Positions 20,251 to 64,000 of a stretch of DNA of 64,000 nt are shown one piece after another. The position numbers and the translations under genes were made by a program. The notes beneath the pieces are model-generated. The model was not told the DNA's origin. It was given only the letters and a program-made list of their open reading frames with translations, and made no database searches. Numbering within the stretch: position 1 is the first letter of the stretch; the number at the start of each line of letters is the position of its first letter. Origin of the DNA: Escherichia coli (lineage in GTDB: Bacteria > Pseudomonadota > Gammaproteobacteria > Enterobacterales > Enterobacteriaceae); NCBI RefSeq assembly GCF_024223415.1, contig NZ_CP100503.1; one strand, given 5' to 3'.

Positions 20251-21444
20251 GTGACCTGGGACGATCACAAGAAGAATTTTGCTCGCCTGGCGCGAGATGG
20301 TGGTTACACCATCGCACAGTATGCCGCCGAGTTTAATCTTAACCCTAATACTGCACGTCGTTATCTCCGTGCCTTCAAAGAAGACACCAGGACAGCGGAC
20401 AGCCGCAAGCCAAATAAGCCAGTCAGGAAGCCACTAAAAAGCATGATCATTGATCACTCTAATGATCAACATGCAGGTGATCACATTGCGGCTGAAATAG
20501 CGGAAAAACAAAGGGTTAATGCCGTTGTCAGTGCCGCAGTCGAGAACGCGAAGCGCCAGAATAAGCGCATAAATGATCGTTCTGATGATCATGACGTGAT
20601 CACCCGCGCCCACCGGACCTTACGTGATCGCCTGGAACGCGACACCCTGGATGATGATGGTGAACGCTTTGAATTCGAAGCTGGCGATTACCTGATAGAT
20701 AACGTTGAAGCGCGGAAGGCCGCTCGCGCTATGTTGCGTCGGTCCGGGGCTGATGTTCTGGAAACCACTCTTCTGGAAAAGTCTCTCTCTCATCTCCTTA
20801 TGCTGGAGAACGCCAGGGATACGTGTATTCGCCTGGTGCAGGAAATGCGCGATCAGCAAAAAGACGATGATGAAGGGACTCCGCCTGAATATCGTATCGC
20901 GAGCATGCTAAACAGCTGTTCCGCGCAGATAAGCAGCCTGATCAACACCATTTACAGCATCCGGAATAACTATCGAAAAGAAAGCCGGGAGGCGGAAAAG
21001 CACGCTTTATCTATGGGGCAAGCTGGCATTGTTAAGCTGGCATACGAACGAAAGCGTGAAAATAACTGGTCAGTGCTGGAAGCAGCTGAATTCATCGAGG
21101 CGCATGGCGGAAAAGTGCCGCCCCTGATGCTGGAGCAAATCAAAGCCGATCTGCGTGCTCCTAAGACCAATACCGATGATGAGGAAAACCAAACAGCATC
21201 TGGCGCTCCATCACTTGAAGATCTGGATAAAATCGCGCGAGAACGGGCCGCCAGCCGCCGCGCTGATGCCGCATTGTGGATTGAGCATCGTAGAGAAGAA
21301 ATTGCCGATATCGTCGATACAGGTGGTTATGGTGATGTCGATGCGGAAGGCATATCAAACGAAGCATGGCTTGAACAGGATCTGGACGAAGACGAGGAGG
21401 AAGACGAAGAAGTTACCCGCAAACTGTACGGGGATGATGATTAA
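20251..21444 (+). CDS. pacA: Pacase (terminase) small subunit PacA
   Basis: 397 aa; GTG start; contains the pac site within its coding sequence. Confidence 0.8.
20444..20602 (+). other. pac: pac packaging site: 4 + 3 TGATC(A/G) hexamers flanking the cleavage region
   Basis: TGATCA at 20444, 20451, 20463, 20478; TGATCG/TGATCA at 20574, 20586, 20597; each carries a GATC Dam site. Confidence 0.8.
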
Positions 21445-30488: not shown

Positions 30489-30554
30489 ATATAATTAAGC
30501 CGCAGTTTTTGTCAACTACGAAGACATTGCCATTATAGACTCCGTGACATCATT

Positions 30555-30578: not shown

Positions 30579-30580
30579 AA

Positions 30581-32023: not shown

Positions 32024-32170
32024 AAAATACCGCAATAACGGAGTGATGCGGTTGTCCGCACAAGTATTCAGGCTGTCAAACCCGGTCGCAGAATTTGCTA
32101 CGACGCAGGAACTATAAGCCTGAACGACGGGAAGATCAATAGTCTGGCGTCCAATAGTAGTTTATTTGTT
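32024..32170 (-). ncRNA. c4: Putative c4-like antisense RNA of module B
   Basis: Colinear (no indels) with the module C leader; GGTTTGACAGCC element at 32071-32082 (rc). Confidence 0.3.
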
Positions 32171-32181
32171 CCAATAAATCA

Positions 32182-32197
32182 AATTTATTAGAGCAAT
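32182..32197 (-). promoter_or_regulatory. C1 operator of immI-like module B
   Basis: AATTTATTAGAGCAAT on plus strand. Confidence 0.6.
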
Positions 32198-32428
32198 ACA
32201 ATCTGGTTGAATGTTTCCTCTCCGAGGTTGCAATGTGCACACTTATTGTTTTATTTGTATGCACTAATAAATATATTATTTTTAATAATAAATAATTGAC
32301 AACTGACAAGTGACTTCAGTCAGAATCATCACACGCCCGGTACGGATGGATCCCTTTTCAAATATTCCATGGACGGCACAGTCTGAGTACCGGGCGCTAC
32401 CTTCAGTTGTATTGCTAAGCCGCCGCTG

Positions 32429-33097: not shown

Positions 33098-33130
33098 CAT
33101 CCCCAAATCCTTTTGGGGAACAACTCATTC

Positions 33131-33721: not shown

Positions 33722-33881
33722 CATGTCCGTATAACCGCGTTACGCCCGAATTATGGTGGGGCGTGATGGGGAGGCTTCGGCCTGCTGGTTTCGTAAGTGC
33801 CAGTCTGCTAACCCCGTCACGTCCTGCCACCTGTTTAGCAGCGGGTCGCAGGTTGTTTTATCAACTTACGAGGCCGTAACT

Positions 33882-35245: not shown

Positions 35246-35254
35246 GCGGAAAGT

Positions 35255-35503
35255 TTAATCAGCATTCAGGAGCAATGCGTTATCTATGATGATCTGCTCC
35301 CATTCTTCGAATGCCCGGTCGCGGACGCCCTGGGGAACACTGTTAGTTTTGAAATCGACGACCATACGCCATTTCCCGTCCGGACGGTACATGCGCAGAG
35401 CTTTACTTCCCCCTTCCCTGCGCACCTCAACGTTATGCTTGTCAGCAAACTCTTGTAATGCTCGTAGCGTCCCATGCTTTACTGTGTAGTATCGCTTTTT
35501 CAA
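35255..35503 (-). CDS. Hypothetical protein
   Basis: 82 aa; last gene of the minus-strand operon headed by the giant helicase gene. Confidence 0.4.
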   Translation of the reverse strand: MKKRYYTVKHGTLRALQEFADKHNVEVRREGGSKALRMYRPDGKWRMVVDFKTNSVPQGVRDRAFEEWEQIIIDNALLLNAD

Positions 35504-35940
35504 GTTTTCTCTCCAGCCTGTGCCAAGGCTTCAACTTCCAAATCGTAAGACTCAAACTCATAGTCCTGGTCGTCAACTTCTTCAGGCACTGGCAGTAAGT
35601 GCCAGGCTGAGTATATCTGACCATTATCAAAACGCTCCTGGCTGTAGAGCGTCGCGGCTATGAGTGTTAGCGCCGGGCGGTCATAACGGTAAATTTTGCG
35701 AACGTCACGGTCAACGAGACGACCGAAATTACCATAACCGCGCTCCAGTAATAATTTTTTAATTTCCGGCCAGTATGGACCATAGCTGCGGTACAGGCGG
35801 TGATTTTTCAGTAATCGCCCGCGTAGCCCTGACAGGAAGAAATCAACGTATTCGTCTTCTGTCTTTCCTAACAACGCTGTACGGAGTACCGCCTCAAGAT
35901 ATGTTTTATTCGGTTTTATTGTATCAGATAGTGTGGCCAT
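35500..35940 (-). CDS. Hypothetical protein
   Basis: 146 aa; overlaps downstream ORF by 4 bp. Confidence 0.4.
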   Translation of the reverse strand: MATLSDTIKPNKTYLEAVLRTALLGKTEDEYVDFFLSGLRGRLLKNHRLYRSYGPYWPEIKKLLLERGYGNFGRLVDRDVRKIYRYDRPALTLIAATLYSQERFDNGQIYSAWHLLPVPEEVDDQDYEFESYDLEVEALAQAGEKT

Positions 35941-35973
35941 ATTATGCGACGCCCGGCGAACCGGGCGCTCCTG

Positions 35974-38900: not shown

Positions 38901-40863
38901 CGTACTCCGGCAGGAAACGATAGGTGATCCTGCGATAGTACAGGTCCATGTCAGTACATACGCGGTCCATATCCCTGATTATTGAGAAGATCGGACGGGC
39001 TTTCTCGTGCTCAATCACGCCGTCTTCATTGACCGAGGTCGTTACGCCATTGTTGGCTTTGGCTGCCGCTTCCGCCTGCTGACGCAATTCTTCATACGCC
39101 GCCAGTTGTTCTTCCGTAAGTGGTGCATCCTGCTGGTGTTCGTCCAGTTCCGGGATCTCCACGGTATCCTTAACGTCTTCCGCCGTTTTAAGCGTTGTCC
39201 AGCGATGGAATATGCCGCGCAGCGCATCAAGGTTTTCAAAGCCCACCAGCGCCATTTTTTCTTCAACTTCACCGCTAATTTTCTGTACCGTTTCCAGCCT
39301 GGTCTTGCCGAAGAATTTAACGAAGTCATCAGGACCGTAGATCCCCATCTTCTGCCAGTATTCCTTCGGCAGCACATGAGAAAGCATGTTGTATGCATCG
39401 ATCGGGGTGTTAACGACTGGCGTTGCAGTCAGGAGAACCGGTCCGCGCCCACCATTCTTTTTCATCAGGTACGCGTTTTTAATTGCCATATCCCGCGCCG
39501 ATTGCGCCACCGCGCTGGTGGGCAGATAGGCCAGTTGTGACGCTTCGCGACCATTTTTATAGCTATTGCGGTAGTTGTGACCTTCGTCAGCGATCACACT
39601 ATCGAAGCCCATATCCTCAAAGTACGGATACTTCTCTGCTTTTTCGGTGCCGGTATCTGAATACTCCGACAATACCCGGCGACGCGCGGCCTCTTTGCGG
39701 TGGGAGTCGGAGTCCATTGCGCTGGCTACGCGCCCGGCGGCAACGAAGTCATAAAGCATATCCTGTGCATGCTCATCTACGGTGTCATCACGTAGCGGAA
39801 TGCGGGCGTATTGTTCTTTGGTAAACACGACTGCACGGTAATTTGAGTGCGGGATCGCGTTCATCCGCGCCGTGATAGTGGCTTCATCTGCCAGCTTAAG
39901 AGCATCGCGCATAACTGGAGTGCCATCAGTACCAAGAACAGGTTTACCGTTCTCATTGAGCACCGGCACCTGGCGAATCTGATCGCCATCCATCAGCACA
40001 TCAAGACCGACGAACAGGTAGTTACTGAATGCCTCTTCACTCAGGAACTCTTTTGCTTCGTAATACCAGTTTTCCAGCACTGATTTAGGCACTACATACG
40101 CAGTACGGGTGGAACGACCGTTCTCATAGTTGAACGCCTCAAGCGCCAGCGCGGTCGTGGTTTTACCCAGCCCGGTACCGAAGCCCAGGATGCCGCGCCC
40201 ATCTTCGGACAGTCGGCGCACCTCGCTATTCTGGTAATCAAATGGCTGTCGCTTACCGCTTAATCCCTTCAACCCAAGCGGATCGCCAGAGTGTTCATAC
40301 GGGATATTGCTATTGAACACATCGTTGTATTTGGCAACCAGCTCATCGTAGCGATCGTGCGTCTTGATCCACTTATTGAACTGGTCCTCAAGCAGTGCCA
40401 TCTGCTCGCGGTAGCCGTTCGCCGTCGCGCTATCTTTGCCACCGATACGCGCACCATTGAGATACTTTTCCAGCTGTGCCGGGAACCCGGTCGCGTTTTC
40501 ACCTGATTTACGGTCCCACTCGTAGCGGATCTCGCCTGTTTCTTTATCCTTGCGCTGGACGACACCGTATCGGTGCCCGACGAACAGACCATCACCACCG
40601 TGATAGGTGTCAGAAACCATTTCGTCGCCTTCCAGCTGCACTGACTGCACATAGCGAAGATCCGGATAGCCGTTTTCCTGCAAAAATTCCAGAATGACGG
40701 AACGGTCGAACCAACGGCTATTGAGCTTAAAGCGGATATTCTCTGCTGGCGTCTTGATGCGCTTCTCTTCGATCGCTGCCAGCTGATTAAGGACGTTGTT
40801 CTTTACCCAGTGCGCCGTAAAGCCCCGTCCTTCAGGTCGGGGATATAAGGCGCGGTTTTCCAC
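35974..40863 (-). CDS. Large SF2 helicase-domain protein, 5'-truncated by IS insertion (DarB-like anti-restriction candidate)
   Basis: 1629 codons; Walker A GFGTGLGKTT, DEGH box, TATP, QRNGRGARVGS; first 19 codons (40807-40863) are IS left-end sequence, host-derived part starts at 40806. Confidence 0.5.
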   Translation of the reverse strand: MENRALYPRPEGRGFTAHWVKNNVLNQLAAIEEKRIKTPAENIRFKLNSRWFDRSVILEFLQENGYPDLRYVQSVQLEGDEMVSDTYHGGDGLFVGHRYGVVQRKDKETGEIRYEWDRKSGENATGFPAQLEKYLNGARIGGKDSATANGYREQMALLEDQFNKWIKTHDRYDELVAKYNDVFNSNIPYEHSGDPLGLKGLSGKRQPFDYQNSEVRRLSEDGRGILGFGTGLGKTTTALALEAFNYENGRSTRTAYVVPKSVLENWYYEAKEFLSEEAFSNYLFVGLDVLMDGDQIRQVPVLNENGKPVLGTDGTPVMRDALKLADEATITARMNAIPHSNYRAVVFTKEQYARIPLRDDTVDEHAQDMLYDFVAAGRVASAMDSDSHRKEAARRRVLSEYSDTGTEKAEKYPYFEDMGFDSVIADEGHNYRNSYKNGREASQLAYLPTSAVAQSARDMAIKNAYLMKKNGGRGPVLLTATPVVNTPIDAYNMLSHVLPKEYWQKMGIYGPDDFVKFFGKTRLETVQKISGEVEEKMALVGFENLDALRGIFHRWTTLKTAEDVKDTVEIPELDEHQQDAPLTEEQLAAYEELRQQAEAAAKANNGVTTSVNEDGVIEHEKARPIFSIIRDMDRVCTDMDLYYRRITYRFLPEYADAVQQLADSLPKQATSEDDDSDDSITQQSQYSLIDKGEFIQLQVPEAFEQEVNKRLARFGIDEQTVTHPVTPKYAKLIATLKEFFPEGKQIIFTDEKTQHQKLKRIICNALNLEPSKVGILNAQTVAEAGKTGKKLKAVKPPKELPDEPTDAQIAKYNEQMALYDAYIAQQNEMSLGGLEKIAADFQEGRTPIIICNKKAEVGINLHRGTTDIHHLTLPWTPASIAQRNGRGARVGSNRASVRVHYYCGKGSFDEYRLKTLKRKAGWISDILRSDKSEMENADANDMIEMQMYTAKDDGERLAMMQVQMDKAKAAQRARQKEQATIDLQNYIKAQHAAGEDVEVLTAELERSKAELEKTTAEVAKFKQAVMAKAADNADWKARWGSVHHTDRMLLAQYRASLKNAIQRKANISQAISRYEKLLNRTQKAATDIKRLRPLVEDAINKGILDVDPDLVNHASEFLVIGDRSWRVGQYYDCAGDIVRIKSLDFDSQRADVEIIFTFKGTKSGNWDVKTLDKQVDVTPDEDAVMQKISGGVSIAGINDIISCDDFYRFQQRGMIKITDSYGVQTTESGYSIDFVGTYTDPLKHAVYPDRRDGALKSSIAKWVLGMMSEGNNRQIRSAETFLVELFGSNYGDVIASYGDTLSPEAIQEKIADAIARMPEKTSQGATRNGDSELEVTNAIFGTNEFRASDYEITTAQFGTIGIYSNKAEIKQAMDAASARIAAERKANLNHAVAALTQSWVTAIREAATTGKITPAIADVVNDGSKFMDAYQMDAVKLPSAYGQLSYRMTYNLVSMFSDLAILGLVDLNEVTPELLSMRKNHVEILQRINTVLAGRTDEEKQADADRINLALGNITEEEIAARNEKQEELSSIQGDATSIAQSLGLNYRVSTADLKMMYAPKFAAGEVFGLQEASGMKGVLFRAKDAIKAKFGARWLPAKAKNSDFPGNWWIIETKHNVADVLAVIQQYA

Positions 40864-41280
40864 CTAACCAGGTGTTTGCTGTTGTTCAATGTATTGGCGG
40901 ATGATGGATATTGGTGCGCCACCGCAGCTACTGGCAAAATAGCTGGGACTCCATAAAACGCCTTTGTAGTAATATCGGGCTGCAATATCTGGTCGATCTC
41001 GTCGCAATAATCTACTCGATACGCCCTTGAGACTGTTCACCAGGCTGGATATCGCCAATTTGGGGGGATAGTTAATTAGCAGGTGAACGTGATCTCGTTC
41101 TCCATCCATTTCAACCAGTTCAGCTTCAAAATCAGCACATACACTTGAAAAGTAAGTGCGTAGTTTTTCTATTGCGTCATGGTCAAAAATCTGACGTCGG
41201 TATTTTGCGACAAAGACCAGGTGAACGTGCATCAGGAAGACGCAGTGTCTTCCACGTCGGATATCAGTTTCTTTTTTTAT
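40864..41280 (-). pseudogene. tnpA: IS200-type transposase tnpA with start codon changed to ATA
   Basis: Copy 3 has ATG at the equivalent position (63558-63560); copy 2 has ATA at 41278-41280; ORF track only finds a TTG-initiated 178-aa extension. Confidence 0.5.
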
Positions 41281-42511
41281 GGACCAAAGTATAATTTGGC
41301 TTATGAAACGACTACAAGCTTTCAAATTCCAGTTAAGACCAAATGGACAGCAGGAGCGTGAAATGAGGCGCTTCGCGGGCGCATGTCGTTTCGTTTTCAA
41401 TCGTGCTCTGGCGCTTCAGAATGAGAATCATGAGGCCGGGAACAAATATATTTCTTATGCAAAGATGACTTCCTGGCTGGTTGAATGGAAAAATGCTACT
41501 GAAACGCAATGGCTTAAAGATTCTCCCTCACAGCCATTGCAGCAGTCACTGAAAGACCTTGAGCGAGCCTACAAAAATTTCTTTCAGAAGCGTGCCTCTT
41601 TTCCCCGCTTCAAAAAGCGGGGACAGAATGATGCATTCCGCTATCCGCAGGGCGTTAAGCTCGACCAAGGGAACGGTCGTATTTTTCTGCCAAAACTTGG
41701 CTGGATGCACTACCGGAACAGCCGTCAGGTCTCGGGGATTGTGAAAAACGTCACTGTCAGCCAGTCCTGCGGTAAGTGGTACATCAGTATTCAGACAGAA
41801 AGTGAAGTATCAACTCCGGTTCACCCTTCAGCATCAATAGTCGGTCTGGATGCAGGCGTGGCTAAACTCGCCACGCTGTCAGATGGCACAGTCTTTGAGC
41901 CTGTAAACAGTTTTCAGAAAAACCAGAAGACGCTGGCGAGACTTCAGCGACAGTTAAGCCGCAAGGTCAAATTCAGCAACAACTGGCAGAAGCAGAAATG
42001 CAAAATACAGCGACTGCATTCCCGTATCGCAAATATCCGCAGGGACTACCTTCACAAAGTCACAACGACCGTCAGCAAAAACCACGCCATGATAGTCATT
42101 GAGGATTTGAAGGTCAGTAACATGTCAAAGTCAGCAGCGGGTACGGTCAGCCAGCCGGGGCGCAATGTCCGGGCAAAATCAGGTTTAAACCGTTCGATAC
42201 TGGATCAGGGCTGGTATGAAATGCGCCGTCAGCTTGAGTACAAGCAGCTCTGGCGAGGCGGTCAGGTGCTTGCGGTTCCGCCAGCGTACACAAGCCAGCG
42301 TTGCGCGTGCTGTGGTCATACAGCGAAAGAAAACCGCCTGTCACAAAGTCAATTCAGATGCCAGGTATGTGGATATACAGCGAACGCCGATGTAAACGGC
42401 GCTCGTAACATTTTAGCGGCGGGGCACGCCGTTCTTGCCTGTGGAGGGATGGTGCAGTCAGGCCGCCCGTTGAAGCAGGAACCCACCGAAATGATTCAGG
42501 CGACAGCCTGA
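41279..42511 (+). CDS. tnpB: TnpB
   Basis: 410 aa; C-terminal 230 aa nearly identical to tnpB at 28201-29433, N-terminal half divergent. Confidence 0.85.
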
Positions 42512-42592
42512 ACGTAGCAGGAATCCACGTCCTTCAGGGCGTGGAGGATGTCAATGGAGCCTCCCCTTCTCTGCCGACGTTCAGGGGGGTTT

Positions 42593-43630
42593 ATGAAAAC
42601 ACCTCTCGTCACCCGTAATGACATAGCCGAAGCGATCGCCCTGCATACTGCCTGTATGCCGACACGGGAGATCCCCGGCGCAATTGCCAACTATTTCATG
42701 ATAACCAGACGTTTTTATACCCGAACAGATAAGGCTGTGATCAACAAGCTACTGATAGCCGAGATCAGGGATTATTTGATTGAACAAGGACGTCTACGTT
42801 ACGCAACAGTGGCAGCAGAAATGAGAAAGGAGGCACATAGAATGACCGGTAATAATTTAAATGTTGAAAAACCAGCACCTGTTGCTTCAGCTACGCCAGC
42901 ACCAGCCGTGAATATCATCCCCAACACCGGAGACACAATCGACAGCCTGACACTGTTAAAGATGGTCAATGAAGCGCGTAAGTTATGTGGGGAACCAGAG
43001 GTTCGGAACAACAAATTCATCGAAAAAATACTCGATGAGCTTGATGGTGAGCACTACACAAAAAGTGTAGTGGAAAAAATGAACAAAACATCAATGCTTG
43101 TCATAACCATGACTTTCAAACAAGCCCTGCGAGTCGCCGCGCGCGAGTCAAAAGCGGTCCGCCGTTCGCTGATCGACAAACTGGAAGAATTACAGCAGGC
43201 AAACTCACCTACCCCATCGATCCCCCAGACATTACCAGAAGCCCTACGCCTGGCTGCCGAGTTGGCAGAACAGAAAATGCAGCTGGAACAACAGCTGGTG
43301 GCCGCAGCCCCTAAAGTCGATTTTGCCGACCGGGTATCAGTGGCCAATGGAATCCTGATCGGGAACTTTGCAAAGGTCGTTGGACTTAAGCAAAACGCCC
43401 TTTTCTCATGGTTGCGCCAGAACGGCATTCTCATGGCTTTTGGTGCGCGCAAAAACGTACCGCGCCAACAGTACATCAACGCCGGGTATTTCACGGTGAA
43501 AGAAGTGGTGCTGGATGATGAAAATGGCTACCAGATACGGCTGACGCCCCAATTAACGGGTAAAGGCCAGCAGTGGTTAACTCGCAAGCTACTTGATGCT
43601 GGTTTGTTAAAACCAGTAGCAATAGGTTAA
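42593..43630 (+). CDS. ant: Antirepressor Ant paralog D at the native position upstream of kilA
   Basis: 345 aa from MKTPLVTRND; preceded by 38 bp remnant of icd 3' end (…LPFSADVQGGL*) then the IS right end. Confidence 0.7.
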   Translation: MKTPLVTRNDIAEAIALHTACMPTREIPGAIANYFMITRRFYTRTDKAVINKLLIAEIRDYLIEQGRLRYATVAAEMRKEAHRMTGNNLNVEKPAPVASATPAPAVNIIPNTGDTIDSLTLLKMVNEARKLCGEPEVRNNKFIEKILDELDGEHYTKSVVEKMNKTSMLVITMTFKQALRVAARESKAVRRSLIDKLEELQQANSPTPSIPQTLPEALRLAAELAEQKMQLEQQLVAAAPKVDFADRVSVANGILIGNFAKVVGLKQNALFSWLRQNGILMAFGARKNVPRQQYINAGYFTVKEVVLDDENGYQIRLTPQLTGKGQQWLTRKLLDAGLLKPVAIG

Positions 43631-43643
43631 CAAAAGAAAAAAA

Positions 43644-43667
43644 CCTGCCAGCAAACTGGCAGGTTTC
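43644..43667 (+). terminator. Rho-independent terminator after ant D
   Basis: CCTGCCAG-CAAA-CTGGCAGG followed by TTTC. Confidence 0.6.
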
Positions 43668-43708
43668 TGAGCAGATCGTCCAACCCGATCTGGATCGAGC
43701 CAGAAAAA

Positions 43709-43725
43709 TTTGCTCTAATAAATTT
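43709..43725 (+). promoter_or_regulatory. C1 operator upstream of kilA-repL
   Basis: TTTGCTCTAATAAATTT. Confidence 0.65.
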
Positions 43726-43794
43726 CGTTTTCTAAGTGCAAAGAATCACCATTTCGAGCTGGTGATTGAAGGTTGATGCAAATTTGGAGAAAAA

Positions 43795-44595
43795 ATGCAA
43801 CAAACATTCAATGCGGATATGAATATATCAAACCTTCATCAAAATGTCGATCCTTCAACCACTCTGCCTGTTATTTGTGGTGTTGAAATTACGACCGACC
43901 GCGCTGGCCGTTACAACCTTAATGCTCTACACAGAGCGAGCGGACTCGGTGCCCATAAAGCGCCAGCTCAATGGCTAAGAACGCTGTCAGCCAAACAGCT
44001 CATCGAAGAGCTGGAAAAAGAAACTATGCAGAATTGCATAGTTTCGTTCGAAGGCCGTGGCGGCGGCACTTTTGCCCATGAATTGCTCGCTGTGGAGTAC
44101 GCAGGCTGGATTTCTCCCGCGTTTCGGCTGAAGGTAAACCAGACATTTATCGACTATCGAACCGGAAGATTACAACCTGCTATTCCGCAGAGTCTCCCTG
44201 AAGCTCTCCGTTTGGCTGCCGACCTGGCAGAGCAAAAGCAACGGCTGGAGCAAAAAATGCTTATGGATGCACCTAAAGTCGAATTCGCTGAACGCGTTGC
44301 TACCGCCAGCGGGGTTCTAATCGGCAACTATGCCAAAGTGCTCGGCCTGGGCCAAAACTATCTCTTCACCTGGTTGCGTGATAACGGAATTCTGATCGCA
44401 ACCGGTGAACGCAGGAACGTCCCCAAACAAGAATACATATCTCGTGGGTATTTCACCCTTAAAGAAACCGTGATCGATACAAGCAATGGAAGCAGGATTT
44501 CTTTCACGACTCGTATAACCGGCAAAGGTCAGCAGTGGCTGATGAAGCGATTGCTTGATGCTGGTGTGCTGGTACCTGTCGCGGCAACGCGCTAA
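43795..44595 (+). CDS. kilA: KilA (KilA-N domain plus KilA-C domain)
   Basis: 266 aa, size and position as in P1; C-terminal domain homologous to Ant C-termini. Confidence 0.75.
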   Translation: MQQTFNADMNISNLHQNVDPSTTLPVICGVEITTDRAGRYNLNALHRASGLGAHKAPAQWLRTLSAKQLIEELEKETMQNCIVSFEGRGGGTFAHELLAVEYAGWISPAFRLKVNQTFIDYRTGRLQPAIPQSLPEALRLAADLAEQKQRLEQKMLMDAPKVEFAERVATASGVLIGNYAKVLGLGQNYLFTWLRDNGILIATGERRNVPKQEYISRGYFTLKETVIDTSNGSRISFTTRITGKGQQWLMKRLLDAGVLVPVAATR

Positions 44596-44624
44596 CAGAC
44601 GTAGTAAGAACCACCAGCATTGTA

Positions 44625-45470
44625 ATGCTGGCTAAAGTCACTTTCCTGAGCTGTATAACGATGAGCGATTTTACTTTTTCTGGCTATGAATTGGCCTGCT
44701 TTGTAACACACTCCGGTCTATCCCGTAGCGCCGGGCATATCCTGTCGCAATGTGCAAATCTCGCGGCAACAACCAGTGAATACTTCATTCACAAGCCTCA
44801 CCGCCTGATCGCGGCAGAAACTGGTTATAGCCAATCAACCGTCGTTCGTGCATTCCGTGAAGCTGTAAACAAAGGAATTCTGTCTGTAGAGATTGTTATC
44901 GGCGATCACCGTGAACGTCGCGCTAACCTGTACCGGTTTACACCATCCTTTTTGGCCTTCGCACAACAAGCCAAAAATGCGCTGATTGAAAGCAAATTAA
45001 AGATCTCTTCAGCGGCAACCAAGGTTAAAGCTGTTCTCGCTAAGACATTGGCTTTATTTAATTTTTTATCCACACCCCCATGTCAAAATGATACCCCCTC
45101 CCCCTGTCAGGATGACGTGGCAATAAAGAATAAGAAGTCAGAAATTAAAAAAACAAAAAGATCAGTTTCCGGCGGTGCCGGAACGACCAGCCTCAAAAAA
45201 CTGACTTCATGGATCGCCGAGGCAAAAGCAAAGGCTGACAATCTGCGGTTATCCAAAAAACGCGCTCAAAAACATGAGTTCAAGCAGAAAGTAGAGGCGG
45301 CAGCGCGGAAATATGCTTACCTGAAGGACAAGCGTTCTCCTGATATTGGCGGGATATCAAACTTCGATAATCTGCCGCATTGCATGACAGTAAACGAAGC
45401 TCTTAATGCGGTATTAGCCAAAAATAAAGATAACGAACAATGGGGTATACCGGCAGGATTCAGAGGGTGA
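44625..45470 (+). CDS. repL: Lytic replication initiator RepL
   Basis: 281 aa ORF directly after kilA; size and position as P1 RepL. Confidence 0.7.
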   Translation: MLAKVTFLSCITMSDFTFSGYELACFVTHSGLSRSAGHILSQCANLAATTSEYFIHKPHRLIAAETGYSQSTVVRAFREAVNKGILSVEIVIGDHRERRANLYRFTPSFLAFAQQAKNALIESKLKISSAATKVKAVLAKTLALFNFLSTPPCQNDTPSPCQDDVAIKNKKSEIKKTKRSVSGGAGTTSLKKLTSWIAEAKAKADNLRLSKKRAQKHEFKQKVEAAARKYAYLKDKRSPDIGGISNFDNLPHCMTVNEALNAVLAKNKDNEQWGIPAGFRG

Positions 45471-45473
45471 TAG

Positions 45474-45490
45474 ATTGCTCTAATCTGGAG
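45474..45490 (+). promoter_or_regulatory. C1 operator at the repL stop
   Basis: ATTGCTCTAATCTGGAG. Confidence 0.5.
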
Positions 45491-45766: not shown

Positions 45767-45948
45767 TACAATCGTTACGGGTGCTTGAGGCTATCTGCTT
45801 CAGGCATTACCCGAAAAGCAGATAGAAGAAAGCCCCAGATAACATTACGCGTCCTGCAAGACGCTTAACATTAATCTGAGGCCATCTCTATGCTTAGCAT
45901 ACGTAGATTAACCCTCTCCCCTTTTAAGGAGCAAGGAATTTTTTACTG

Positions 45949-46581
45949 CTATGCCGCATTTCCAATTATGGATTCAGCGACCAGAACAACCCCATGCTTA
46001 CTTCGATCTGGGTGTTCACTCCATATCTCGGATTCAGGAATACTTACCCCGTCATAGCAAACACGTTCGCCGTCAAACGGGTAATACTGAGCGGCATCGG
46101 TGTCAAGGATAAACACTTTTAGCTCGGAAGAGCGACGGGCGATGTGTTGCCAAAGAGCTTTTCCACCTTCGTATTGCTCATTATCACTGAGCAAAACAAC
46201 ACCAGCTTTTGAGGCTACGGTTTCGTAAACAAAAGTAGCTAAACCGACATCCCGGACGGTTCCATCAACCACGATACCTTCAATCTGGGCAACATCGCTA
46301 TCCTCCCAGAACTTCCTTACCAGTACGCCTTCAAGCTGCGGGCGACGTTGAAGTTCAAGAGTAGCGACAACCTTATGGCGCATATCACCATCGATAATAG
46401 AAGGCGCAGCCTCTATTACAGCTGCAAATGGGGTTTTGGAATCCCATATAACCTGGTAAAGCACACCCTGGATGGTAACTCCGTCCAGGATCGAAAATCG
46501 ACGAGCGACAGTACCCGGGGAGTACGACATTGGAATCACAGCCATTTTAGAGTCCCCCTTTAACAGTACAGGCACAAACAT
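45949..46581 (-). CDS. Hypothetical protein
   Basis: 210 aa ORF. Confidence 0.4.
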   Translation of the reverse strand: MFVPVLLKGDSKMAVIPMSYSPGTVARRFSILDGVTIQGVLYQVIWDSKTPFAAVIEAAPSIIDGDMRHKVVATLELQRRPQLEGVLVRKFWEDSDVAQIEGIVVDGTVRDVGLATFVYETVASKAGVVLLSDNEQYEGGKALWQHIARRSSELKVFILDTDAAQYYPFDGERVCYDGVSIPESEIWSEHPDRSKHGVVLVAESIIGNAA

Positions 46582-57368: not shown

Positions 57369-57701
57369 TTAGTTACCGCTGATAGCGCGGTTGTAATCAT
57401 TAACGTTGCGATTCTTCCTGTTAATCCCCTTCAGCATCGTTTCTGTATCAAGGATATAGGCTGGCAGATCATCAAAATATTCACTGCTAAATTCTGGCAT
57501 CCTGCACATAAATGCACTTTTGGGGGCAGGGTGGTTAACCTTTGTCGGCGTCGGCGTTAAATTCGCTGATCGACTCCCGGAGCAACCGCTGAGTGTCAGC
57601 AGGAATACGCTGGCGAACATTACCCGCCGCAACCAGTTGTTTCTGAACTTCAGCTTTTCGTTCCATTTGCCTGTCAGCATACTTGGCTTGTTCTGATTCA
57701 T
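57369..57701 (-). CDS. Putative membrane lipoprotein (mlp position)
   Basis: Lipobox LTLSGC; true start probably internal, so the gene is shorter than the ORF. Confidence 0.45.
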   Translation of the reverse strand: MNQNKPSMLTGKWNEKLKFRNNWLRRVMFASVFLLTLSGCSGSRSANLTPTPTKVNHPAPKSAFMCRMPEFSSEYFDDLPAYILDTETMLKGINRKNRNVNDYNRAISGN

Positions 57702-57957
57702 TTTTCACTTCCTGGCTGTGAAAATGTTGCTCTGCTTTGTTCATCGTCTCAATGGCCTGGTTAAGATCCATTATTGACTTATCACGTTCCTTAACAGCCT
57801 GATCAAGACTGCCAATTTTCTCCATGGCTTGCTTTAGCTGATGACGTTCCCATGCAAACCCAGCACCAACAAGTGCGCAAATCAGAACAAGAACACCAGT
57901 AGCAGCAAGTTTCTCCTTCAAAGACAAAGCTGTTTTTAACGTAGAAAAGAATGACAT
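57535..57957 (-). CDS. Membrane-anchored coiled-coil protein (ppfA position)
   Basis: Start at MSFFST with AGGAGG RBS; N-terminal TM segment. Confidence 0.4.
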   Translation of the reverse strand: MSFFSTLKTALSLKEKLAATGVLVLICALVGAGFAWERHQLKQAMEKIGSLDQAVKERDKSIMDLNQAIETMNKAEQHFHSQEVKNESEQAKYADRQMERKAEVQKQLVAAGNVRQRIPADTQRLLRESISEFNADADKG

Positions 57958-57996
57958 GTCTTCCTCCTGAAGAAAAATTATCAATGAAGTCCTTTG

Positions 57997-58842
57997 TTAC
58001 TGTGCCGCTTTGTTTAATTCATCAAGAACAGAATCAGGAACCAAAGCGGCAACTGCGCTGGCTGTGCTGGCCTTATTTGCTGATGCTTCCGCAAGCGCGG
58101 TACCGATAGCATGGTTATAAGCAGTTATGGCTACGTTGGCGCTTTCATTCGCTCGTTCATACTGCTGTTGTAACGCAGTTGTGGGCGCTGTTGTCTGGTT
58201 GAAAACAACCCCAAACTGTTCAGTTGCTACTTTCAGAGATTCAATTTGCTCTTCTGTTAGTGCTGGTGGGGGAATGGCAGTGCCGCCGCCTGAACCAGAG
58301 CCTGACGAGCTTCCTGAACCAGTGTTAAGGGTCTGGTTAATCTCCCCCATAGCAGCGACTAAACTTGATGTATTAAGCGCGTTAACAGCGTCCTCAAGCG
58401 ATTTAGTAATATTCACATCACCAATGGCAATAGAGATCAGCAGTTCTGAAACTTCTCGCTCATTAGCACGGCAGTAAACATCCCAACCAATATCGAGTTG
58501 AAGCAGCATTGACAGATCTGCATAACCAGCCAACAGGTCCGCGTGCTTAGTTGCCAGTTCTCCAATGTTCGTTAAGCCGGTTGTGGTTGTTCTGATCGTT
58601 GAAACATAGCTGGTAATAGTGTCGGGATAGACAATTGTATCCAGAATTAATCCGGTCAATTCTTCTGCAAGCTGTTTTGCCGTGTTAGCACTGTTTCGTG
58701 CCGATGTTATGGCACCAGGTGTTTTCATCCCACCGGCAGCGGCCAATTTTTTATATGCGGATAACTGGTAGTCTTTTTCCAGCATGATATCTCCTAACTT
58801 ACCTGAACCAGGCCGTCTCCTGACGCTACGGTAGAGCCGCAT
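57997..58842 (-). CDS. Hypothetical protein with Gly/Ser-rich linker
   Basis: 281 aa ORF; start may be internal (MLEKDY at 58785). Confidence 0.35.
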   Translation of the reverse strand: MRLYRSVRRRPGSGKLGDIMLEKDYQLSAYKKLAAAGGMKTPGAITSARNSANTAKQLAEELTGLILDTIVYPDTITSYVSTIRTTTTGLTNIGELATKHADLLAGYADLSMLLQLDIGWDVYCRANEREVSELLISIAIGDVNITKSLEDAVNALNTSSLVAAMGEINQTLNTGSGSSSGSGSGGGTAIPPPALTEEQIESLKVATEQFGVVFNQTTAPTTALQQQYERANESANVAITAYNHAIGTALAEASANKASTASAVAALVPDSVLDELNKAAQ

Positions 58843-59078
58843 GAAACAGGGTCACCAACGCATACGACCCCTTTACCATTGACGGTAAACCATGCCCTGG
58901 TTGATATAGCTTGCCCACCGTGCGTACTGTTTCCATCGGTATGCTGTGCATATTGCTTACCATCAACTAACACTTCGACTCCGTTGACTTTAAGTAGTGG
59001 TTCACTCTCTACAGGAGGCCTGGATGGGAATCCTCCGTGCCCCGAACAAATGCTGTCTTTTGTTGCAATACTTGCCAC
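58794..59078 (-). CDS. Small Cys/Gly-rich protein, possible PAAR-like spike tip
   Basis: 94 aa; VNGxxVxVxGD...CG pattern; weak assignment. Confidence 0.3.
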   Translation of the reverse strand: MASIATKDSICSGHGGFPSRPPVESEPLLKVNGVEVLVDGKQYAQHTDGNSTHGGQAISTRAWFTVNGKGVVCVGDPVSCGSTVASGDGLVQVS

Positions 59079-59158
59079 GTCATCACCAATTATTTGCTCT
59101 GGTTTTTGTTATTTTAACTTAGGTTACTTGTGGTCTAAATGGCGTTAACTATTGCATA

Positions 59159-59175
59159 ATTGCTCTAATAAATAT
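59159..59175 (+). promoter_or_regulatory. C1 operator upstream of uhr-hrdC-dmt
   Basis: ATTGCTCTAATAAATAT. Confidence 0.65.
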
Positions 59176-59531
59176 TGTTTTTTATGTCGTGTTTTCGGTA
59201 CCATTCAGCCATCGCCCTTCAATGGGCATTTGTTTGGAGTCGTCAGATGCAGATGGAGCTAATAAGCCGCAAGGAGTTCGATAGCCGTGTAACCAGCGGT
59301 GAACTCGACAACTTGCAGGCTATCAAGGTGAAAGAAGGCTTTTGCCTCATTGGGAATCAGAGCGGAACAAATCGCGTTTTTATGCTTCGCCGTACGGATT
59401 TGAAGCCATTTGTCTGGAAGAACGAAATTGGTCCCAGCTCATACGCTCAAACGAGGGGGTGCCACAACCTGGCCTTTTTCTACAAAGACGAGCTTTCTGT
59501 GGTTGATATTCAAGGGTTACAACATGTTTAA
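59175..59531 (+). CDS. uhr: Hypothetical protein upstream of hrdC
   Basis: ORF overlapping hrdC start by 8 bp; start may be internal. Confidence 0.4.
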
Positions 59532-60429
59532 GCACTGGAAAAACATTACTATTTATAAACTTTCTCGTGAGGCGGATCTGACCGACTTAGAAGATAAAAA
59601 GAAAATGATCCTTTTCACGCCATGCGGTAGTCAGGATATGGCCAAGTTCGGTTTTGTATCTCCATTTGGTGATAATTCCGAAGTTATCGCTATGCATGGA
59701 AATGGTTTTATCCTTGTTGAAGCAAAGCGCGAAACAAAAATTCTTCCCCCGCCGGTTATCCAGCGAGCTATTCAAGAAAAAATTGAAAAACTTGAGCAAG
59801 AACAAGCGCGTAAACTGAAGAAAACAGAGAAGGACTCCCTGAAAGACGAAGTTCTGCATTCTCTTCTGCCACGGGCTTTTTCAAAGTTTTCTGTTATCCA
59901 GGCGATCTACGACGGTTCAACTAAACGTATCTATATCAATGCCAGCACGCGGCAGGCAGAGGATATGCTCGCGCTTATGCGTAAGTCTCTGGGTTCTCTT
60001 CCTGTTGTTCCCCTGAGTGTTGAAAATCCCATTGAATTAACGCTGACCGACTGGGTACGTGATGGTAGTGCTCCACAGGGATTTCAAATGGGGGATGCGG
60101 CAGAACTTAAGGCAGTGCTTGAGGATGGCGGTATTGCCCGAGTGAAAAAGCAGGATTTGGGAAGCGATGAAATTTCCACACACCTGGAAGCTGGCAAGCT
60201 CGTCACTAAGTTGGCACTCGACTGGCAGAACCGCATTAAATTTACACTGGACCATAACTTCAGCCTTACCAGCGTCAAATTTGCGGATGAATTGCTTGAG
60301 CAGAACTCTGATATTGATAGTGAAGATGTAGCGCAGCGACTGGACGCAGATTTCTTCCTGTTGACCAGTGAAATTTCGTGCCTGGTTGATGCTCTGGTAA
60401 ATGCCCTTGGTGGAGAGGCTAAGCAGTGA
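59524..60429 (+). CDS. hrdC: RdgC-homologous recombination-associated protein
   Basis: Start at MFKHWKNIT; strong similarity to E. coli RdgC as I recall it ([11 protein letters not shown]..., [13 protein letters not shown]). Confidence 0.8.
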
Positions 60430-63128
60430 AAGAGCTGTGCTATGGATCTGTTTGCAGTGGAATTGAAGCCGCGAGTATTGCCTGGGAACCGTTGGGTATG
60501 CGTCCGGCGTGGTTTGCTGAAATCGAGCCTTTTCCATCAGCCGTTCTTGCGCACCGCTGGCCCCATGTCGCCAACCTTGGCGACATGACAAAACTTGCCA
60601 AAAAAGTCCTGGCTGGGGAAATCGAATCCCCTGATGTGCTGGTGGGAGGGACACCATGTTTTACCGCGGGCCATATGGTTCTTTGTAAAAATGGTTATAA
60701 ACCAATAGAAGATGTTTGCCCTGGCGATTACGTAGTCAGTCATCTCGGGCGGTTACAACAAGTAAAAAAAGTTGGTTCAAAAATAGCTAATACGGGGTTA
60801 CTTAATGCCGTTGGGCAGCCTTTAGGTATAAGAACAACCAACGACCATCCCTTCCTGGCGGTTCGGTGGAAAGCCCAAAACACCCGGAAAAATGGCACAT
60901 ATTTTAAGAGAGAGTTGTTGTCTGAACCGGAATGGCGAGCAGCATGTGATATGCCGGGATATCAATGGTGTGCTCTAACTAATTTCAATATTGCATCTCC
61001 AGATATTTGTTCTCGGTTCTTGTCTGAAGAACAGGCTATGTATCTTGCGGGCGCTTATGTTGGCGATGGATATATTAGGAGATGGAGAGGTAAATCTAAG
61101 AAGGCGGTTGTTTTTGGCATAAATTGCCAGAAATTGAGAAAGTTTCATTGCCGCATATCAGAAAACATATTTTCCGTGGCAAGCGAAATCCGAGGGAGCA
61201 TCAAAGTAACCTTGAATGATACGTGTTATGCCAATTGGCTTAATGAACATTTTGGCGAGTTAAGCCATGCTAAGCGTATCCCTGCATGGGTGATGTCGCA
61301 TCCATTGCGTCATGTGTTTTTACAAGGCTATCTTGATACTGATGGGACACCAAGTGGTAAAGCGGGATTTAGAATTAATAGTGTTAGTCCTGCGCTTGCT
61401 TGGGGCGTTGCGGAGTTGTCACAGACTTGTGGTTATGTTTCTTCGGTCAGCTTTATTGAAGTTGAGCCCAAAAAAGTGATTGAGGATCGCGTGGTAAATC
61501 AACGGAATTATTATCAGGTAACAATCTGCCCGCAGAAATTGTCACGTAAATCAAGATTGGCTCATGGAATGCTTTTACGAACAGTCAAAGAGTTTAAATC
61601 GGTAGGCCTAGATACTGTATACAACATAGAAGTCGAAGGTGATCATTCCTATATCCTCAATGGTGCGGTGGTCCATAACTGTCAGGCATTCAGTATCGCT
61701 GGATTACGTGGCGGGCTTGATGATGAGCGTGGCGCGCTAACTTTAAAGTATGTGGAGCTTGCAAATGCAATTGACGACAAACGGGCTGAGTCATTTCTCA
61801 AACCAGCCGTTATCGTCTGGGAAAATGTCCCAGGAGTCTTGTCATCGGCAGATAACGCCTTCGGATGTTTCCTTGCCGGATTGGCTGGAGAAGATGTGCC
61901 ATTTGAACCAGGTGATCGACCTGAATCAGGAAAAAGCAACGCGTTCTGGCGGTGGGATGGCAAAACCGGTTGCCATGTTCCAAAGTGGCCGCAGTGTGGT
62001 TGTATTTATGGACCGCAGCGAAAGGTGGCCTGGAGAATCCTTGATGCCCAATACTTCGGAGTGGCACAACGACGCCGACGCGTGTTTGTTGTCGCAAGTG
62101 CTCGAACAGACCTCGATCCCGCAACGGTACTTTTTGAGTTCGAAGGCGTGCGCCGGAATATTGCGCCGAGCCGAAAAAAGAAGGAAATCGCTTCCGCCAT
62201 TACTGCAAATGGCGCTGCAATCAGTGGCGAAAGCCTAAATCCATGCCTACACGCTGGCATGTCCCCCGGTATGAAATCGACGAAAGCCGTAAACGCTTTC
62301 AGGATGGCAGCATTTGGGGAATATATTGACGATGAAACCGCATCGACAGTAAAGGCAAGAGATTTTAAAGATGCCACTGACCTTGCCGTTTTTAGCAGCA
62401 CAGGAGCAGGTTTTTGGTCAGAAGGGCATGGTACATTGCGGGCACGTGAGCAAGAAAGCCATGAGCATCTTGTTACATTGGCTTTTCCTGAGCGTATGAG
62501 CGGTACACAACATGCTGCAACTAAGAATACTTCACCATCTCTAATGGCTAAAAATCCAACAGCTGTTTGCTATGAAGTAAGAAACGCAGAAGTAGCTGTC
62601 CGCCGTCTTACCCCTGTCGAATGTGAAAGGCTGCAAGGTTTTCCTGATGGGCATACGTTGATCCCGACGGAAAAGCGTAAAAAAGTTAATTCAGATGAAC
62701 TGGCATATCTTCGCAATCACTATCCAGATTTAAGCGAAGAAGAGGCCGCGATGCTTGCAGCTGACGGACCGCGTTACAAAGCGATCGGCAATAGTATGGC
62801 AATACCAGTAATGCGCTGGATTGGCGATCGGATTACTAAGGCCGTATGTCGGCAGAAAGAAGGAAGTGAAACAAAAGAGCGAAAAGTTAAACCAGCGGCA
62901 GAATTCGAACGGTCCATATTCAAATGGGCTGGTGGAAAATTTGGTGTTCTGGAACAAATCTTTCGCTATTTGCCAGAAGGGAAGCGCCTGATTGAACCTT
63001 TTGTCGGTGGCGGAGCTGTCTTCACGAATGCCGGATACCAGGAAAATCTGCTAAATGATGTGAATGCTGACCTGATTAACTTTTACCCAGTGCGCCGTAA
63101 AGCCCCGTCCTTCAGGTCGGGGATATAA
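60426..63128 (+). CDS. dmt: Bifunctional DNA methyltransferase Dmt (C5-cytosine MTase domain with intein, Dam-like domain), 3'-interrupted by IS
   Basis: Motif [14 protein letters not shown] split by intein; ENV, QRRRVF motifs; Dam-like FKWAGGKF...[10 protein letters not shown]...DLINFY; last 14 codons are IS-derived from 63087. Confidence 0.8.
60657..61679 (+). other. Intein (341 aa) with LAGLIDADG homing endonuclease domain
   Basis: Begins Cys (CFTAGH...), block [17 protein letters not shown] motifs [12 protein letters not shown] and [11 protein letters not shown], ends ...[21 protein letters not shown] followed by +1 Cys. Confidence 0.85.
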
Positions 63129-63143: not shown

Positions 63144-63560
63144 CTAACCAGGTGTTTGCTGTTGTTCAATGTATTGGCGGATGATGGATATTGGTGCGCC
63201 ACCGCAGCTACTGGCAAAATAGCTGGGACTCCATAAAACGCCTTTGTAGTAATATCGGGCTGCAATATCTGGTCGATCTCGTCGCAATAATCTACTCGAT
63301 ACGCCCTTGAGACTGTTCACCAGGCTGGATATCGCCAATTTGGGGGGATAGTTAATTAGCAGGTGAACGTGATCTCGTTCTCCATCCATTTCAACCAGTT
63401 CAGCTTCAAAATCAGCACATACACTTGAAAAGTAAGTGCGTAGTTTTTCTATTGCGTCATGGTCAAAAATCTGACGTCGGTATTTTGCGACAAAGACCAG
63501 GTGAACGTGCATCAGGAAGACGCAGTGTCTTCCACGTCGGATATCAGTTTCTTTTTTCAT
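63144..63560 (-). CDS. tnpA: IS200-type Y1 transposase TnpA (intact ATG start)
   Basis: 139 aa from ATG at 63558-63560 (MKKETDIRRGRHCVFLMHVHLVF...); HuH motif DHVHLLI. Confidence 0.8.
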   Translation of the reverse strand: MKKETDIRRGRHCVFLMHVHLVFVAKYRRQIFDHDAIEKLRTYFSSVCADFEAELVEMDGERDHVHLLINYPPKLAISSLVNSLKGVSSRLLRRDRPDIAARYYYKGVLWSPSYFASSCGGAPISIIRQYIEQQQTPG

Positions 63561-64000
63561 GGACCAAAGTATAATTTGGCTTATGAAACGACTACAAGCT
63601 TTCAAATTCCAGTTAAGACCAAATGGACAGCAGGAGCGTGAAATGAGGCGCTTCGCGGGCGCATGTCGTTTCGTTTTCAATCGTGCTCTGGCGCTTCAGA
63701 ATGAGAATCATGAGGCCGGGAACAAATATATTTCTTATGCAAAGATGACTTCCTGGCTGGTTGAATGGAAAAATGCTACTGAAACGCAATGGCTTAAAGA
63801 TTCTCCCTCACAGCCATTGCAGCAGTCACTGAAAGACCTTGAGCGAGCCTACAAAAATTTCTTTCAGAAGCGTGCCTCTTTTCCCCGCTTCAAAAAGCGG
63901 GGACAGAATGATGCATTCCGCTATCCGCAGGGCGTTAAGCTCGACCAAGGGAACGGTCGTATTTTTCTGCCAAAACTTGGCTGGATGCACTACCGGAACA
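63559..64000 (+). CDS. tnpB: TnpB (5' part, continues beyond window)
   Basis: Same sequence as tnpB at 41279; divergent from tnpA with overlapping CATG starts. Confidence 0.8.
   Translation, partial: MDQSIIWLMKRLQAFKFQLRPNGQQEREMRRFAGACRFVFNRALALQNENHEAGNKYISYAKMTSWLVEWKNATETQWLKDSPSQPLQQSLKDLERAYKNFFQKRASFPRFKKRGQNDAFRYPQGVKLDQGNGRIFLPKLGWMHYRN

Follow-up and report, generated by a model that had tools for sequence, protein, structure and literature searches.

Probable interruption of an intein-bearing, P1-like dmt gene in its Dam module by an IS608-like insertion in an IS-reduced phage-plasmid

The dmt reading frame, its C5 module and its intein

The window analysed here, a stretch of 64,000 nucleotides, carries close to its right end a dmt gene of the P1 type, the match spanning from the start of the open reading frame (ORF) to base 63086. 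The regulatory region and the parts of the gene upstream of this point are as follows.

59159..59204, + strand: C1 operator Odmt and promoter Pdmt of the uhr-hrdC-dmt operon, intact (46/46 identical to P1 65145-65190; P1 annotation)
60426..63128, + strand: dmt ORF, 900 aa
60426..60656, + strand: N-extein, C5-cytosine methylase motif I to "...VLVGGTP" of motif IV (alignment with P1 and RCS47 Dmt; Pfam PF00145)
60657..61679, + strand: 341-aa LAGLIDADG intein, Cys1...TNDH...two LAGLIDADG motifs...VVHN (in-frame presence/absence relative to P1 Dmt; Pfam; TIGR01443)
61680..62906, + strand: C-extein, the rest of the C5-methylase module (CQAFS, ENV, QRRRR and GNS motifs) and a linker (alignment with P1 and RCS47 Dmt; Pfam; NCBIfam)

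The C5 module of dmt is encoded in full: motifs I, IV (PCQ), VI (ENV), VIII (QRR) and X (GNS) of the C5-cytosine methylases all lie in one polypeptide, upstream of the insertion sequence (IS). The TIGR00675 profile scores 99.9 bits on the ORF, slightly below its cut-off of 100.65, because of the intein and a long variable region. It is motif IV that is split by the intein, the insertion site being the catalytic Cys of this motif, with the +1 Cys after the intein as the catalytic Cys of PCQ. With 1,023 nt of intein, the dmt interval is more than a Dcm-Dam fusion that an IS has cut.

This intein carries a class 1 signature, CFTAGHMV...TTNDHPF...AVVHN/C (Cys1, the TxxH of block B, the terminal HN and the +1 Cys). 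Hint_2 (29.2 bits) and LAGLIDADG_3 (33.1 bits) both exceed their Pfam cut-offs, and the NCBIfam profile TIGR01443 (intein_Cterm) scores 29.1 bits against a cut-off of 15.6. In a sequence search against the PDB there was a weak match to the DnaX mini-intein and nothing else. When aa 78-418 are removed, the resulting joint, GGTP/CQAFSIAG, is identical to that of natural intein-less dmt alleles. On the strength of these motifs splicing is predicted, and the C5 activity would be kept once the intein is spliced out.

Of 496 plasmids, 125 (about 25% of P1-like plasmids) have the intein-bearing allele, and this presence/absence polymorphism is consistent with mobility; both LAGLIDADG motifs carry acidic residues. 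No relevant description of a Dmt intein emerged from literature searches, which is no proof that it is undescribed, and the intein-bearing records that we examined name the product simply DNA methyltransferase or Dam family and have no intein feature. An intein at the catalytic cysteine of Dmt, common in P1-like plasmids, merits mention in studies of P1 methylation. For annotation, the 900-aa ORF is best described as an intein-split C5 methylase followed by a dead Dam stub and an IS-encoded tail.

The insertion in the Dam module

The 3' part of the ORF and the element that follows it comprise these features.

62907..63086, + strand: N-terminal stub of the Dam (D12) module, ending at Y887 (Pfam PF02086 positions 1-59/253; RCS47 and P1 continue KTLQRE...DPPY)
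63083..63086, + strand: TTAC, target and left cleavage tetranucleotide (IS608 rule, PMC3201880)
63087..63128, + strand: IS-encoded 13-codon tail and stop of the shortened Dmt (stop 63126-63128), doubling as IS left end, with the guide AAAG at 63099-63102
63103..63122, + strand: left-end subterminal imperfect hairpin, CCCCGTCC-TTCA-GGTCGGGG (DNA fold -13.7 kcal/mol, z = -3.1)
63144..63560, - strand: tnpA, Y1/HUH transposase of 138 aa, intact (Pfam Y1_Tnp 142.8 bits; NCBIfam transpos_IS200 146.9 bits)
63583..64000, + strand: 5' part of tnpB, of the RNA-guided nuclease family, cut by the window end (Pfam HTH_OrfB_IS605)

The initial annotation had dmt cut within its Dam-like domain by an IS after TTAC, with the Dam-like region ending at 63086 where the IS left end starts. 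Both points are borne out. The megablast alignment of dmt with the phages RCS47 and Ro157c2YLVW runs in one piece and stops exactly at 63086, while that with P1 falls into two pieces, either side of the intein. The junction lies at 63086/63087: the IS begins at 63087, immediately 3' of TTAC and between codons Y887 and K888, so that P1 reads ...AACTTTTAC/AAGACTCTG and the window ...AACTTTTAC/CCAGTGCGCC.

What is left of the Dam module is short. At aa 834-888 the Pfam profile of the D12 N6-adenine methylases is matched at positions 1-59 of 253 only, and the NCBIfam profile "dam" covers positions 3-63 of its 267. The stub lacks the DNA-recognition region as well as DPPY; the ORF thus does not encode a complete Dam/D12 domain with its catalytic motif IV (DPPY), and the DPPY-bearing part of the RCS47 and P1 proteins has no counterpart anywhere within the 64-kb window. 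Since DPPY is absent and only 59 of 253 D12 positions are left, the Dam activity of the dmt product is probably lost.

The sequence from 63087 onwards shares 99.8% identity with an IS200/IS605 element carried by plasmid pMTY1887_IncI, and 99.9% with a second, full-length copy in the window (40807-42554). The scores of tnpA compare with cut-offs of 23 bits for Pfam Y1_Tnp and 55 for NCBIfam transpos_IS200, and the full tnpB of the second copy, at 41303-42511, scores 390.9 bits with guided_TnpB (cut-off 100). The element has subterminal hairpins rather than terminal inverted repeats, at 63103-63122 on the left (z = -3.1) and at 42525-42544 and 10-29 on the right (z = -2.4). Insertion 3' of a specific tetranucleotide (TTAC) and a right end in TCAA constitute the IS608 rule (PMC3201880), which is obeyed at four of the four junctions in the window and in the pMTY1887 copy.

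We therefore regard the locus as an intein-bearing, P1-like dmt whose Dam module was cut by an IS608-like insertion in an IS-reduced phage-plasmid, a reading to which we give a probability of about 0.88. Under it, the window would represent most of a P1-like (Punavirus) phage-plasmid, reduced by IS activity. The C5 module could work only once the intein at its catalytic cysteine had spliced out. The IS608-like element would have entered between codons 887 and 888, on the top strand and 3' of TTAC, at the site that the left-end guide tetranucleotide AAAG is expected to choose. Within the Dam module, the Dmt product would then end past the AdoMet-binding motifs, which would leave the phage-plasmid without an active GATC methylase of its own. 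Such an insertion into dmt is nothing unusual and belongs to a known class of events. Unlike the junction, the identity of the IS and the loss of the domain, all of which are read directly, the transposition mechanism at this site is something we infer.

The junction has no precedent in the collections we searched. With megablast against phages, plasmids and complete E. coli genomes, no record covers the dmt-IS junction at 80% or more, and the exact junction patterns are absent from viral_contigs, genome_contigs and metagenome_contigs. Neither the truncated Dmt, begun with V or with M, nor the Dbn fragment had an entry when the exact protein was looked up. This uniqueness, together with the fact that the IS occurs in the window at least three times, as copies or as fragments, a classic source of mis-assembly, could be taken to mean that the junction is an assembly artefact, mis-joined via the repeated IS. 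We consider this very improbable: the join is base-exact at TTAC and the left end, as transposition chemistry requires, the same holds for the three other junctions, and even if recombination within the IS had produced a mis-join, the left junction of dmt::IS would remain genuine.

Other IS junctions and the fate of the 3' part of dmt

The window contains two further IS sequences and the packaging site.

1..39, + strand: IS right end (hairpin 10-29, ...GTCAA), adjoining dbn (P1 73029/73030, directly after TTAC in P1)
20444..20602, + strand: P1-type pac site, 4+3 TGATCR hexamers, inside pacA
40807..42554, + strand: second, complete IS copy, 1,748 bp (left end at the darB TTAC, P1 15301; right end at the icd TTAC, P1 48649/48650)

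All four IS/flank junctions in the window fall at a TTAC of the P1 reference, and this coincidence is not a chance pattern. The two flanks of the second copy come from different P1 loci, and this copy bridges a gap of 33 kb relative to P1, from TTAC to TTAC. The right end that opens the window has the same orientation as the dmt copy, and on the P1 map its junction with dbn lies 4,980 bp downstream of the dmt site. Megablast against plasmids found no record with the right end-dbn or the darB-IS-icd junction. Between them, the dmt copy and the IS end at the window start account for 953 of the 1,748 bp of the element.

The initial annotation expected the dmt frame to resume beyond the IS. This appears doubtful, because the IS right end is fused to dbn and the second copy spans the 33-kb gap. 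In one version, the dmt copy is the very copy whose right end opens the window, and the 3' part of dmt has been deleted; we give this about even odds. The circle would then measure about 64.8 kb and would have lost P1 68050-73029, that is, 3' dmt, the ban operators, tRNAs, plp, upl, tciABC, ban and 5' dbn. If so, the right flank of the dmt copy should be dbn (TGTCCGCGATGATACC, TGTCCGCGATG, TGTCCGCGATGATACCTGG), with a loss of 4,980 bp.

The other version, which we hold at slightly under an even chance, is a simple insertion. Here a clean 1,748-bp IS would be followed off-window by the 627 nt of dmt that are left, DPPY included, and the right flank of the dmt copy should be the rest of dmt (AAGACTCTGCAACGCGAG, AAGACTCTGCAACGCGAGGC); the ban operators, tRNAs, ban and 5' dbn would be retained, and a separate IS copy would sit in dbn. 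IS200/IS605 elements normally leave their flanks unrearranged (PMC3201880), the dbn junction is a bona fide TTAC site at which an independent insertion is plausible, and the number of events needed is similar to that of the deletion. Against this, the second copy already joins two TTAC sites that are 33 kb apart in P1, both window ends hold the IS in the same orientation (together those 953 of 1,748 bp), and nothing from P1 68050-73029 lies within the window, where the tRNA, ban, tci and plp genes are all lacking. Given the negative junction searches and the end of the window at 64000, simple insertion and insertion plus deletion are not separable. The window boundaries themselves were considered as a test of a 64.8-kb circle against a larger replicon and set aside, the chance that both ends fall in an IS being about 1-3% at any size.

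It is also conceivable, if unlikely, that segments were moved and not lost. IS-by-IS recombination would have excised circles that re-integrated at another IS copy, and the 33-kb morphogenesis block, the dmt-dbn block or both would sit outside the window, the whole genome being about 100 kb and still able to form phage. That total is a normal size for P1-like plasmids, judging by record lengths, and the direct orientation of all IS copies makes excision and re-integration possible. However, relocation takes more events than deletion, the excised circles would have neither oriR nor oriL (P1 map), and no related record has such an order.

The initial annotation described a pac site with seven GATC hexamers, and seven TGATCR are indeed found (TGATCA at 20444, 20451, 20463 and 20478, TGATCG at 20574, TGATCA at 20586 and 20597), in a pacA region 97.7% identical to that of P1 and encoding a PacA 99.5% identical to P1 PacA. 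The proposal that packaging would have to rely on host Dam is correct in principle, as P1 pac cleavage requires GATC methylation and P1 dmt, according to the literature, is dispensable in Dam+ hosts and needed in dam- hosts. It is probably moot here, however, because the window is without portal, tail, baseplate and lysis genes; pro, tail-fibre, sit and tube genes are likewise lacking within it. The element looks like a phage-plasmid that an IS200/IS605 element is shaping into a plain plasmid.

A more speculative reading, to which we attach a low probability, is that the IS copies provide accidental RNA-guided exclusion of wild-type P1-like phages. The guide segment of a TnpB guide RNA comes from the DNA immediately 3' of the IS right end, and TTAC is the expected target-adjacent motif for this TnpB. 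The flanks 3' of the right ends are the P1 sequences that directly follow TTAC in intact P1 relatives: the dbn flank equals P1 exactly over the 31 bases compared, and the icd flank has one mismatch in the first 16 (position 5, G versus A) and two over 31. At the IS right ends, no Rfam match to a TnpB guide RNA was found at the gathering threshold. If the reading is true, plasmid nucleases would be aimed at the uninterrupted dbn, icd and possibly dmt sites of incoming P1-like phages. One-ended strand transfer by TnpA might also account for the TTAC-to-TTAC gaps, in place of homologous recombination between IS copies.

Relation to known systems

The element in dmt resembles IS608 of Helicobacter pylori in its divergent tnpA (Y1/HUH) and tnpB, in its subterminal imperfect hairpins without terminal inverted repeats, and in the left cleavage and target site TTAC, the right cleavage site TCAA placed 10 nt after the foot of the right-end hairpin and the left guide AAAG. 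It differs in that TTAC is separated from the foot of the left-end hairpin by 16 nt, compared with the 19 nt quoted for IS608 (PMC3201880), and because of this spacing we class it, from its sequence, as IS608-like and not as IS608 itself. Widespread chromosomal copies in E. coli are about 90% identical to it, and plasmid copies 96-99.8%. The IS609-like elements of E. coli are also among its nearest known counterparts. IS609 insertions have been reported in P1-like plasmids (PMC6906374), but IS609 of pJIE250-3 is about 1.3 kb long with the left site TTAT (PMC6906374), whereas the present element has 1,748 bp and uses TTAC.

Up to Y887, the exteins are 98% identical to P1 Dmt, a bifunctional C5-cytosine and Dam-type N6-adenine methyltransferase of 754 aa, and the uhr-hrdC-dmt operon, C1 operator and promoter are the same as in P1. 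Unlike P1 Dmt, the protein described here contains a 341-aa intein, and the IS cuts it short ahead of the Dam-module half that bears DPPY. A P1 strain with a defective dmt has been recorded before (AF234173, "dmt, incomplete"). The intein is shared, at the same site and with 98-99% identity, by RCS47, vB_EcoM-Ro157c2YLVW and about 125 PLSDB plasmids, but in contrast to this dmt the intein alleles of the RCS47 type are full length (1,095 aa in RCS47).

The dmt reading frame and its intein

The dmt interval (60426-63128) is a single 900-aa ORF on the plus strand, with the RdgC-family gene hrdC upstream, and the promoter and C1 operator that the dmt operon has in P1 are preserved intact (46/46 identity, window 59159-59204). 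Megablast placed the region in Punavirus, the P1-like phages. Two of these, RCS47 and vB_EcoM-Ro157c2YLVW, align in one piece ending at window 63086, and the P1 alignment is split in two (57501-60640 and 61680-63086); GenBank also holds a P1 strain in which dmt is incomplete. A Pfam search recovered five domains.

Pfam domains within the dmt ORF (plus strand)
C5-cytosine methylase domain
Hint domain
LAGLIDADG domain
Intein splicing domain, 18.6 bits, under its 35.8-bit cut-off
aa 834-888, D12 N6-adenine methylase domain, only profile positions 1-59 of 253

Residues 78-418 (window 60657-61679, 341 aa) are missing from P1 Dmt, and their deletion from the window protein gives back GGTP/CQAFSIAG, C5-methylase motif IV, with the insertion point (slash) at the catalytic Cys (PCQ) of the C5-methylase module. 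Judged from its sequence, and with family scores in support, the inserted segment is an intein of canonical class 1 type that includes a homing endonuclease. Its first residue is Cys (CFTAGHMV), its block B reads TNDH, two LAGLIDADG motifs of 10 residues each are present, and it terminates in VVHN, with the catalytic Cys as +1 residue. Its G+C content is 42.7%, versus 49.7% for the exteins. The same intein is present in RCS47 and Ro157c2YLVW and, in PLSDB, in 125 of 496 plasmids matching the dmt region (~25%), the remainder matching the flanks only; relatives at 47-52% identity lie inside other C5 methylases, including one of Mannheimia haemolytica. When intein-plus and intein-minus alleles are compared, synonymous differences concentrate within ~16 nt on each side of the insertion point. 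Such differences, at 60641-60656 and 61680-61730, would fit either divergence of the homing site or co-conversion tracts. Our literature search found no paper describing the Dmt intein, and the intein-bearing dmt records viewed are annotated only as methyltransferases, with no intein feature.

The P1 reference dmt reads VLVWGTPCQ in motif IV (codon 74), and VLVGGTPCQ is found in both natural intein-less alleles checked, in intein-bearing alleles and in the window. Lying next to the catalytic Cys, this G-to-W change may be relevant to the C5 activity of P1 Dmt being annotated only as "perhaps".

Truncation of the Dam module by an IS

At the insertion site P1 reads GACCTGATTAACTTTTAC/AAGACTCTGCAACGC, coding ...DLINFY/KTLQRE, and the window reads ...AACTTTTAC/CCAGTGCGCCGTAAAGCCCCG. 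From 63087 to its end, the window has 99.8% identity to the IS200/IS605 element of IncI2 plasmid pMTY1887, and matches a complete copy of 1,748 bp at 40807-42554 in all but one of 914 bases. The initial annotation had dmt cut in the Dam-like domain by an IS after TTAC, which this comparison bears out to the base. Both ends of the element have subterminal imperfect hairpins.

Genes of the IS copy in dmt
63144-63560, minus strand, TnpA, Y1/HUH transposase (Y1_Tnp 142.8 bits; transpos_IS200 146.9 bits)
From 63583, TnpB (guided_TnpB 390.9 bits, scored on the complete copy)

The truncated frame runs through 13 further IS-encoded codons to a stop at 63126-63128. Its product retains two motifs of the Dam module (16 and 11 residues) and lacks everything from K888 on, DPPY included, from which we infer that Dam activity is lost. 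The C5 module lies wholly upstream of the IS, and could still be produced if the intein splices.

Layout against P1 and packaging

The layout was obtained by a blastn map against P1 (NC_005856), read with the P1 annotation. On this map the window looks like a P1-like replicon cut down by activity of the IS.

Window segments and P1 counterparts
40-11480, dbn', genes 5, 6, 24 and onward (P1 73030-84482)
11556-17591, minus strand, type I R-M cassette (no P1 counterpart)
17692-22928, phd through pacAB (P1 87970-93206)
~24633-33098, c1, lox, cre, c8, mat and immunity fragments (P1 93232-94799, then pieces of 1-3469)
35248-40806, lxc, ulx, darB 3' part (P1 9743-15301)
40807-42554, IS copy 2 (no P1 counterpart)
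42555-45484, icd', ant, kilA, repL (P1 48650-51585)
46675-54575, bplB, pmgG, genes 21-23, parBA (P1 53412-61312)
56828-63086, oriR through the dmt site, interrupted by the intein (P1 62807-68049)

The R-M cassette is EcoR124-like (hsdR 1038 aa, hsdS 412 aa, hsdM 520 aa) and stands in place of the P1 pmgT-humD segment. The immunity-I region is present more than once, with some of the copies inverted: besides several icd/ant-like fragments, C4 antisense-RNA genes with a1b1 target sites occur three times (23124-23211, 33749-33834 and, on the minus strand, 31911-31996). There is an isrK match at 23023-23100, and an Rfam sok antitoxin match (hok/sok-type module) at 45779-45953, in a segment that replaces rlfA/rlfB and adjoins repL. 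No tRNA genes lie in the window.

All four IS junctions in the window fall at a P1 TTAC.

IS junctions (slash, junction position)
dmt, P1 68049, TTAC/AAGACT, IS left end (window end)
darB, P1 15301, TTAC/TGGACC, left end of IS copy 2
icd, P1 48649, TTAC/TGGAAC, right end of IS copy 2
dbn, P1 73029, TTAC/TGTCCG, IS right end (window 1-39)

IS copy 2 is complete and bridges the darB and icd sites, between which P1 has 33 kb of sequence, including the portal, lysis, tail-fibre, baseplate, tube and sim genes that the window lacks. By tblastn, the window holds no portal, pro, lyz, ssb, darA, lydA, cin, S, R, 16, bplA, sit, pmgB, tub, pmgC, simC, res, ban, tciA or plp. Recombination between two directly oriented IS copies could have produced the darB-icd join, as could a one-ended reaction of TnpA. 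The tnpA start of IS copy 2 is ATA, not ATG (base 41278), the sole mismatch to the dmt copy in 914 bp. Between cre and c8 there is an isolated 647-bp fragment of a related tnpB (28232-28878, minus strand, 95.7% identity to the pMTY1887 copy).

Since P1 sequences next to the IS right ends match TTAC-adjacent sites of intact P1, TnpB copies guided by them could target incoming wild-type relatives, a prospect we consider improbable.

The pac site is present as annotated, with 4+3 hexamers. Because P1 packaging requires methylated pac (PMC10695390, PMC12707154), dmt is dispensable in Dam+ hosts, as found by CRISPRi in P1vir (PMC10695390), and required in dam- hosts (reviewed in PMC12707154). The proposal that packaging would rely on host Dam if Dmt is inactive is thus sound in principle, but virion genes are missing with the 33-kb gap. 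Unless that segment lies off-window, the element would be unable to build virions, and the question of Dam-dependent packaging would not arise.

The 3' part of dmt and comparison with known elements

At the window end, the IS with its left end in dmt is cut off after 914 bp, and the window starts with the last 39 bp of the same IS (right-end hairpin at 10-29), in the same orientation and fused to dbn at a point 4,980 bp beyond the dmt site on the P1 map. Base 1 is G, and A in the other IS copies. Neither 3' dmt nor 5' dbn was found in the window by tblastn. The simplest arrangement for a closed molecule is a ~64.8-kb circle in which one IS copy accounts for both window ends and P1 68050-73029 is deleted; the remainder of the Dam domain would then not lie beyond the IS, contrary to the initial annotation, which had the frame resume there. 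Alternatively, two separate IS copies flank a 5-kb segment. That both window ends fall inside an IS is an equally improbable coincidence under either arrangement, and the number of events needed is similar, so we put the deletion circle at about even odds with the two-copy arrangement. No sibling with the window's IS junctions was found among the phage, plasmid, E. coli genome and contig collections searched.

The dmt::IS allele is a new insertion of a well-known kind, in which an IS200/IS605 element has entered a gene of a phage-plasmid. Insertions of the related element IS609 have been reported in P1-like plasmids (PMC6906374). IS608 inserts 3' of TTAC, and its guide and cleavage features have been described (PMC3201880); the ends of the present element match them, with AAAG directly before the left-end hairpin and TCAA, the final IS bases, 10 nt after the right-end hairpin.
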